DNA from: Octopus vulgaris
Taxonomy: Eukaryota
Length of the DNA stretch: 64,000 nucleotides
Direction of reading: 5' to 3'
Assembly: GCA_951406725.2 (NCBI GenBank)
Contig: OX597819.1
Span: 91,946,001-92,010,000 of the forward strand
The position numbers and the translations under genes are program-made. The notes beneath the pieces are model-generated. The model did not search any database. It saw nothing but the letters and a program-made list of their open reading frames with translations, and was not told the origin of the DNA. Shown here piece by piece: positions 53,551-54,445 of the stretch (its first letter is position 1; each line of letters opens with the position of its first letter).

Positions 53551-54442
53551 ATTCAACAATATAAAGGAATAGCCCATATAGGTCATTCGACTCACTAGAA
53601 AGAGCAGCCAAACTCAAACCGCTAAATAGTTGTAACTTTGAAATAGAAAGAGAAATAAAAACATTTATCCTTTTCATCTCTGGACTATGCATAGTTTCGA
53701 CAAACTTCGGTAAAAAAATTAAATTAAATTAAATTAAATTTATTTACAACTGGCGTGTCTCATCAGCAAAGAAACCAAGGTCTAGTATATATATCCACGA
53801 GGCGACAGCAGAGAAGCCTCAAGTCTAAATACTCTAAATTTTCAAAATCCACCGCCAACGCGCGGTTTTCTCAGCAGCAAATACAACCTGCTGATTTAAT
53901 TTCAAAATTAGCCAAAAAATCATCAATTAATAAATATAAGGGTAGCGAAAAAATTCAAGAAAAGTTATTCTCCGCTACCAGCGGTCTAGTGAGAAAGAAA
54001 AGATAGTCAGAGACTATATAATATACATTCAACCGCGCGTTGGCGGTGGATTTTGAAAATTTAGAGTATTTAGACTTGAGGCTTCTCTGCTGTCGCCTCG
54101 TGGATATATACTAGACCTTGGTTTCTTTGCTGATGAGACACGCCAGTTGTAAATAAATTTAATTTAATTTAATTTAATTTTTTTACCGAAGTTTGTCGAA
54201 ACTATGCATAGTCCAGAGATGAAAAGGGAAAATGTTTTTATTTCTCTTTCTATTTCAAAGTTACAACTATTTAGCGGTTTGAGTTTGGCTGTTCTTCTAG
54301 TGAGTCGAATGACCTATTAGGGTCATTCCTTAATATTGTTGAATGTATATTATATAGTCTCTGACTATCTTTTCTTTCTCACTAGACCGCTGGTAGCGGA
54401 GAATAATTTTTCTTGAATTTTTTCGCTACCCTTATATCTATT

Positions 54443-54445
<3 letters not shown>
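53551..54445. mobile_element. Hammerhead-bearing non-coding element, inverted and permuted pair (monomer 476 nt)
   Basis: X(53551-53866) Z Y(about 53928-54033) X'(54031-54344) Y'(to 54445). Arms nearly identical; flanked by (TATC)n on both sides. Confidence 0.9.
54124..54219 (+). ncRNA. Type I hammerhead ribozyme, intact core
   Basis: ucuuug-CUGAUGA-gaca...uguc-GAAAC-UAUGCAUA-GUC-cagaga. Palindromic stem III; predicted cleavage after 54213. Matching copy on the minus strand at 53677-53772. Confidence 0.85.

Follow-up and report, generated by a model that had tools for sequence, protein, structure and literature searches.

Head-to-head insertion of a dispersed 476-nt hammerhead element, probably a non-autonomous Penelope-like element (PLE), in the genome of Octopus vulgaris

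The window analyzed here is a stretch of 64,000 nucleotides of Octopus vulgaris (contig OX597819.1, positions 91,946,001 to 92,010,000 of the forward strand) from an assembly of 2.8 Gb in 227 contigs (GCA_951406725.2). It holds an inverted pair of copies of a 476-nt unit between microsatellite tracts. Unit positions were numbered q1-483 along the minus-strand reading of 53551-54033, where q477-483 duplicate q1-7, and were divided into the segments Y (q1-108), Z (q109-166), and X (q167-483). The following features make up the locus.

53437..53550, left flank: long tract of (TATC)n/TA microsatellite target, start approximate
53551..54033, minus strand, left arm: q1-483, a full 476-nt lap plus 7 nt, with its 3' end at the fixed site E1 (53551)
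53677..53772, minus strand: second intact hammerhead copy, predicted, core 53766-53683
53868..53925, minus strand: segment Z (q109-166), which closes the loop, left arm only
54031..54033, head-to-head switch: 3-nt AAC microhomology common to both arms
54031..54445, plus strand, right arm: q167-483 and then q1-108, with its 3' end at the fixed site E2 (54445)
54124..54219, plus strand: type I hammerhead, predicted, core 54130-54213, predicted cleavage after GUC 54213 (q351)
54345..54445, plus strand: 'tail' of 101 nt separating E1 from E2 and terminal in a single arm, with a GGTAGC...GCTACC hairpin inside
54446..54473, right flank: short tract of (CTAT)n/(TA)n adjoining the right arm

The 476-nt unit and the strand switch at AAC, both pointed out in the first-pass annotation, were borne out. 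ATTCAAC was found at 53551 and 54027, 476 nt apart, and GTTGAAT at 54338; the right arm matched q167-483 at 306/317 positions with 3 gap columns (54031-54344) and q1-108 at 106/108 (54338-54445), so that the arms close the loop. Since Z was confined to the left arm and X followed by Y to the right arm, neither arm can have been produced from the other by fold-back, and two copying events were consequently needed, from a template holding the whole loop. A loop closure of about 470-477 nt was seen in many further copies, indicating that chance is not its cause, nor is a single accidental fold-back of the assembly. No target-site duplication was discernible at the insertion between its (TATC)n/TA and (CTAT)n/(TA)n flanks.

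The arms had also been described as nearly identical and the event consequently as young, an argument that proved weak. The window arms differed at 10/387 compared columns (2.6%), close to the family mean for inverted pairs (301/8951, 3.4%, in 68 comparisons, the simple repeat at q296-323 being excluded from divergence counts), and thus the event is not especially young; PLEs of the same genome contain 504- and 766-nt repeats at 100% identity. Eight of the 10 differences were concentrated in q366-471, a clustering possibly due to a second family member, whether as a source of conversion or as a priming template, and arm differences at q457, q458, and q471 fell on family-polymorphic columns. 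A lap-specific allele at q70, apparently common to the window and another locus (L011), was rejected as an alignment edge artefact.

Two further sequence features were observed around the insertion. E1 (53551-53568, minus) and E2 (54428-54445) have the motif CCTT.ATATT..T.AAT in common, and a predicted hairpin precedes both, which gives the appearance of a duplicated start signal. Outside both microsatellite flanks, a near-identical direct repeat of about 23 nt (TTGG..C.TCCCATAAATAAT) lies at approximately 53350-53373 and 54471-54494, which we take to resemble a mariner-type terminus.

The predicted hammerhead consists of stem I (TCTTTG/CAGAGA), the core CTGATGA, an AU-rich stem II of about 60 nt, GAAA, and a palindromic stem III (ACTATGCATAGT). 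Where a single intact hammerhead had been described, the core with cleavage after 54213 was indeed present, but it was not the sole copy, there being two cores, one per unit. Across the family, the core was intact in 79/93 laps. Two-sided changes were observed in stem I (C-G 70, T-A 14), stem II (A-T 54, G-C 33), and stem III (T-A 111, A-T 8), these counts representing related copies and not independent events, while position N7 was free (C 69, T 28). Furthermore, 105/106 junctions showed the standard length across the cleavage site. Judged from these sequence comparisons, the hammerhead is under selection.

The hammerhead fold was predicted at -13.0 kcal/mol against -13.6 kcal/mol for the best local fold, a cost of 0.6 kcal/mol, and the unit as a whole folded better than 100 shuffled sequences (z -3.6). 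The best whole-unit fold was without stem III, and an unconstrained fold of 54115-54235 likewise gave stems I and II without III (z -0.20). An Rfam scan of the window at gathering thresholds returned no hammerhead match, for which the long stem II is a likely cause, and only a 5S-like copy elsewhere. The latter is a full-length 5S rRNA match (60844-60962, minus, 86.7 bits) that abuts a (TA)n tract on its 5' side and a short repeat-like stretch on its 3' side, and may be a retroposed 5S or a 5S-derived SINE.

To describe the family, five DNA queries were used, each giving 644-2259 first-look candidates, which are not copy numbers and of which the best 40 were scored. The 189 loci considered were reduced to 144 distinct sites (143 after removal of one further duplicate). 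Several site sets were selected on E1/E2 ends; L093 and L117 were excluded as duplicates from the lap and end counts. The set may still contain a few duplicated loci or spurious overlaps between matches (L074, L079). The exact E2-plus-TA pattern occurred at 69 places and its reversed control at 0. Among 251 arms at the 144 sites, 89 had their 3' end at E1 (q474-483), 117 at E2 (q100-112), and 45 elsewhere, and TA repeats followed 191 of the 206 arms ending at E1 or E2. In the set selected on the hammerhead region, such ends were counted by hand in 26/34 arms and 19/20 sites. The copies thus did not show the permuted start points that the first-pass annotation anticipated, since the 3' ends were fixed at two sites, 101 nt apart, in 206/251 arms.

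Meanwhile, the 5' ends varied widely. The longest arm measured 776 nt (1.63 units), and every arm at the 144 sites was shorter than two units. No full dimer was found among these sites by a candidate search that skips very common words, and arrays may therefore be missed. Two cleavage sites were crossed in 7/207 arms of all sets, and L003 and L004 begin upstream of the second hammerhead.

Besides the longer copies, solo 'tail' insertions were observed in which the E1-E2 segment (q1-108) alone stands between TA repeats (L059, L132, L151, L154, L159, L160, and L176); 9/62 E2-ended arms stop in this size class. At 63175-63400 on the minus strand, the window also contains a sister-family copy, next to which an inverted piece lies immediately above. 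The sister family (1567 first-look candidates) is about 66% like the unit along its length and has the same plan, TA flanks, and an E2-like motif; its hammerhead core is UUGAUGA in most of 20 loci and CUGAUGA or CUGAAGA in a few.

Head-to-head inversions, in which 5' ends are joined and 3' ends point outward, were found at 79 of the 144 sites. Few-base overlaps or gaps were typical of the 81 switches, and the switch points differed between sites. Both ends could be classed in 49 of 80 inverted pairs, the other 31 having an arm that ends elsewhere, and the classed pairs were E1/E2 in 46 cases, E1/E1 in 2, and E2/E2 in 1. In pairs whose E2 end was dictated by the selection, the other arm ended at E1 in 25 cases and at E2 in 1. 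In addition, the paired 5' starts lay at most 25 nt apart in 21/46 E1/E2 pairs, a number reached in 0/5000 permutations (mean 11.8), the starts of the window pair (q1 and q167) not being this close.

This E1/E2 rule follows directly from two start sites, and as the origin of the inversion we favor two separate primings over one lap and a reversal. The alternative course, put forward in the first-pass annotation as once round and then in the opposite orientation, would have one reverse transcriptase start at E1, make a single round of a circular or multimeric RNA, switch at AAC to an opposite-strand template, and continue to q108. It accounts for a left arm of one lap plus 7 nt and for the microhomology at the switch, and is in line with the antisense or self-priming model proposed for PLE inversions (PMC3846280) and with the lineage alleles that arms of one site have in common (75/895 discordant at 40 lineage-polymorphic columns). 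However, it requires antisense RNA and also that copying should by chance have stopped precisely at E2, where plain uninverted copies end as well at their 3' side; most inversions span far less than one lap, and the 46/49 rule comes straight from two start sites. We therefore consider this course improbable.

Even less credence can be given to the view that the locus is solo pseudo-LTR debris of an autonomous PLE, a DNA-level palindrome, or an assembly fold-back. Although PLE remnants often carry inverted pLTR pairs (PMC4209133) and no contig from four sequencing runs spanned the switch at 54031, the unit is self-closing (Y-Z-X) with a longest stop-to-stop frame of 92 codons, the arms are asymmetric as well as 2.6% apart, and the same plan with differing switch points recurs at 79/144 sites. 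Furthermore, tblastn on the 189 loci revealed no PLE ORF in register with an arm and hence no copy extending into a coding PLE body, the matches in four loci being 0.6-1.4 kb off. These results supported the earlier proposal of a hammerhead-bearing non-coding retroelement with a closed unit of about 476 nt in place of a plain palindrome.

Candidate mobilising enzymes were sought among the PLEs of the same genome. In a GIY-YIG search, the best 150 of 6136 candidates were scored and 30 loci were excised. Elements ending in (TA)n were found to encode intact 781-aa ORFs composed of RT, a C-x4-C-x2-C linker, and GIY-YIG; this linker, along with CCHH-type residues identified by eye, constitutes the Neptune/Nematis signature as given in PMC8557442. 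The two ends of the intact PLEs in (TA)n were about 37 nt apart (19 vs 6 ends, some loci overlapping), and one other member of that family (L227) contained a 766-nt inverted copy. The microsatellite (TA)n target is common to the 476-nt element and these endonuclease-bearing PLEs, and because the latter have the same insertion architecture, the 476-nt element was read as a non-autonomous PLE.

No 3' end homologous to the unit was found in the 49 PLE loci examined, which included GIY-YIG loci and three or more PLE families. The sole match in the 30 GIY-YIG loci was a family fragment of 59 nt lying in opposite orientation within TA repeats (L192), and neither 14 extended PLE loci nor 5 loci from a further PLE family matched the unit. 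Since these loci yielded no autonomous PLE whose end is homologous to the unit, the mobilising enzyme was inferred from the shared architecture.

L220-L226 (e.g. L223:244-5460) form a young, intact, TA-targeting PLE family with pLTRs up to 100% identical and a tail of about 37 nt. Its members contain an upstream ORF of up to 479 aa in addition to the 781-aa RT-GIY-YIG ORF, and a hammerhead-like motif near the 3' end with a core that is non-canonical by eye (TTGATAAG...GAAAC). In L236 (1500-2220, minus), a 360-nt PLE RT fragment abuts the 5' end of a sister-family copy on the same strand, possibly as a template-switch chimera and possibly through nested insertion; the PLE family of this fragment was rejected as the partner, its 3' end being unrelated.

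The reading that we favor, with a probability of roughly 0.8, is that a dispersed non-coding hammerhead element of 476 nt was inserted here head to head, that this element is likely a non-autonomous PLE (non-LTR retrozyme), and that it was twin-primed in trans. The reverse transcriptase/GIY-YIG endonuclease of a TA-targeting PLE would nick both strands of a TA-rich microsatellite, and the PLE protein would prime two cDNAs on the element RNA at the fixed internal sites E1 (q476-483) and E2 (q104-109). These cDNAs would extend toward the 5' end through the hammerhead, the E1 cDNA for 483 nt and the E2 cDNA for 415 nt, and would then be joined at the short AAC microhomology. The RNA pool was probably mixed, comprising hammerhead-cleaved linears, on which most cDNAs would stop just 3' of q351, and more-than-unit templates derived from a single unit, for which a ligated monomer circle is the simplest form.

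Several observations run against this favored reading. The tail of 101 nt exceeds the 30-40 nt described for PLEs, and none of the PLE loci examined has the homologous 3' end. No arm reaches two units, while a freely rolling circle might give longer ones. Stem III is missing from the best whole-unit fold, and the concentration of 8/10 arm differences in q366-471 is unexpected from a single homogeneous template. The Anolis PLE is reported not to have needed hammerhead cleavage, with no RNA-seq reads ending at the site (PMC11167929), and 8/9 Xenopus retrozyme dimers are described as uncleaved in vitro (bioRxiv 10.64898/2026.07.22.740005). Stalling of the reverse transcriptase at a hairpin would also account for the accumulation of 5' ends considered below.

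Concerning the template, the first-pass annotation had proposed a circular or tandem RNA; the requirement for more than one linear unit stood, and the circle itself is plausible. At the same 40 lineage-polymorphic columns, laps within one arm were discordant in 18/313 cases (5.8%), as opposed to 7906/17722 (44.6%) between sites, and the lap differences were non-directional (13 same, 12 opposite). Even in subfamilies only 80-84% like the window copy, the laps were 96.6-97% alike. From this concordance in spite of lineage divergence, we infer that the more-than-unit copies were regenerated from one unit and not inherited, as might occur through a ligated circle or a precise template jump.

A competing account dispenses with the circle, taking the template to be a linear RNA that reads through a partial tandem in the genome without being cleaved, or to result from an end-to-start jump, with the hammerhead silent or active only later. 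It concerns the template step only and leaves the two primings and the element class as in the favored reading. All arms being shorter than two units, the passage of 46/128 unselected arms through the cleavage site, and the uncleaved RNA reported as the dominant substrate of the Anolis PLE (PMC11167929) are in its favor. On the other hand, inherited tandem laps should drift like lineages, and instead they were concordant, also in the divergent subfamilies; the selection on the hammerhead is at odds with its silence. Template jumps would generally be expected to be imprecise in many cases, but the junction was almost without indels (105/106). We rate this linear account somewhat below even odds, and a circular template for the window family as about an even bet on the sequence comparisons.

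The 5' ends bear on the same step. Among 147 arms at 93 sites for which length had played no part in the selection, they fell in q346-400 for 65/111 arms at risk, compared with 10/46 in q291-345 (Fisher p 2.4e-5) and 16/127 in q401-455. This pile-up just 3' of the cleavage site suggests that cleaved linear templates were used too, and it fits a ribozyme-made 5' end at q352. Since it spans 0-50 nt downstream of the cut, over a predicted hairpin (approximately q353-383), a reverse-transcriptase stall explains it too. Only tentatively can the copies be regarded as a fossil record of the retrozyme life cycle, in which in-vivo cutting would fix the 5' end of most templates, ligated monomer circles would renew the more-than-unit copies in each generation, and a dimeric PLE enzyme would prime both target strands at two start sites and so produce the E1/E2 rule; if true, the proposed circle route to PLE tandems would gain evidence at the genome level, and this would count against hammerhead cleavage being dispensable.

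In comparison with known systems, the geometry of the window insertion agrees with that of PLEs, for which partial tandems accompanied by an inverted 5'-truncated copy and, at one end, by a tail of 30-40 bp have been described as standard (PMC8557442; PMC3846280). The first-pass annotation had implied a contrast with PLEs that consequently does not hold. When purified, the PLE protein of Anolis was reported to cut both strands of AT-rich DNA, to extend them, and to initiate at two internal positions of the RNA that bound the tail (PMC11167929), and the window insertion corresponds to PLE insertions in its partial tandem, 5' truncation, inverted 5'-truncated copy, one-sided tail, two fixed 3' ends, microsatellite target, and hammerhead near the 3' end (PMC8557442; PMC3846280; PMC11167929). 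In contrast to the PLEs described there, the window element has no ORF, a tail of 101 nt rather than 30-40 nt, and a full canonical hammerhead rather than a minimal one. Non-autonomous Chlamys PLEs such as MRC1 are likewise short, non-coding derivatives with pLTRs and head-to-tail insertions (PMC8557442).

As to class, non-LTR retrozymes have been reported with circRNAs in coral, mussel, and axolotl (PMC7229834), animal retrozymes have been argued to be non-autonomous PLEs (bioRxiv 10.64898/2026.07.22.740005), and PLE-hammerhead circles have been proposed as the source of PLE tandems (PMC4209133). The window element resembles the metazoan non-LTR retrozymes in its non-coding, low-GC, self-paired unit of a few hundred nucleotides, type I hammerhead, head-to-tail repeats, and coexistence with autonomous PLEs (Cervera and de la Pena 2020, PMC7229834; Li, Clavereau and Pollet, bioRxiv 10.64898/2026.07.22.740005), and 476 nt falls in the 51-972 bp range given in the preprint. 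Unlike the circRNAs of 170-400 nt in PMC7229834, its unit is longer and known here from DNA; unlike the non-LTR retrozymes as described, the family forms dispersed partial tandems of less than two units, half of them inverted, in (TA)n, with a stem II of about 60 nt, a stem III of 4-5 bp, and no homologous pLTR found in the 49 PLE loci. A plant-type LTR retrozyme (type III hammerhead in LTRs, 4-bp TSD) was rejected on the type I topology and the lack of an LTR pair and of a discernible TSD.

The locus is most likely a non-LTR retrozyme that is dispersed, targets (TA)n, and shows the insertion geometry usual for PLEs, and because both class and insertion shape have already been published, it is ordinary when taken alone. 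Counts such as those of the E1/E2 rule, lap homogeneity, and the 5' pile-up near the cleavage site were not found in the literature searched, the scope of which was mostly without subscription papers, older PLE reviews, and preprint supplements. These counts bear on two open PLE questions, namely the in-vivo role of the hammerhead and the origin of tandem and inverted copies, for which the family provides a high-copy, clean, and short system.
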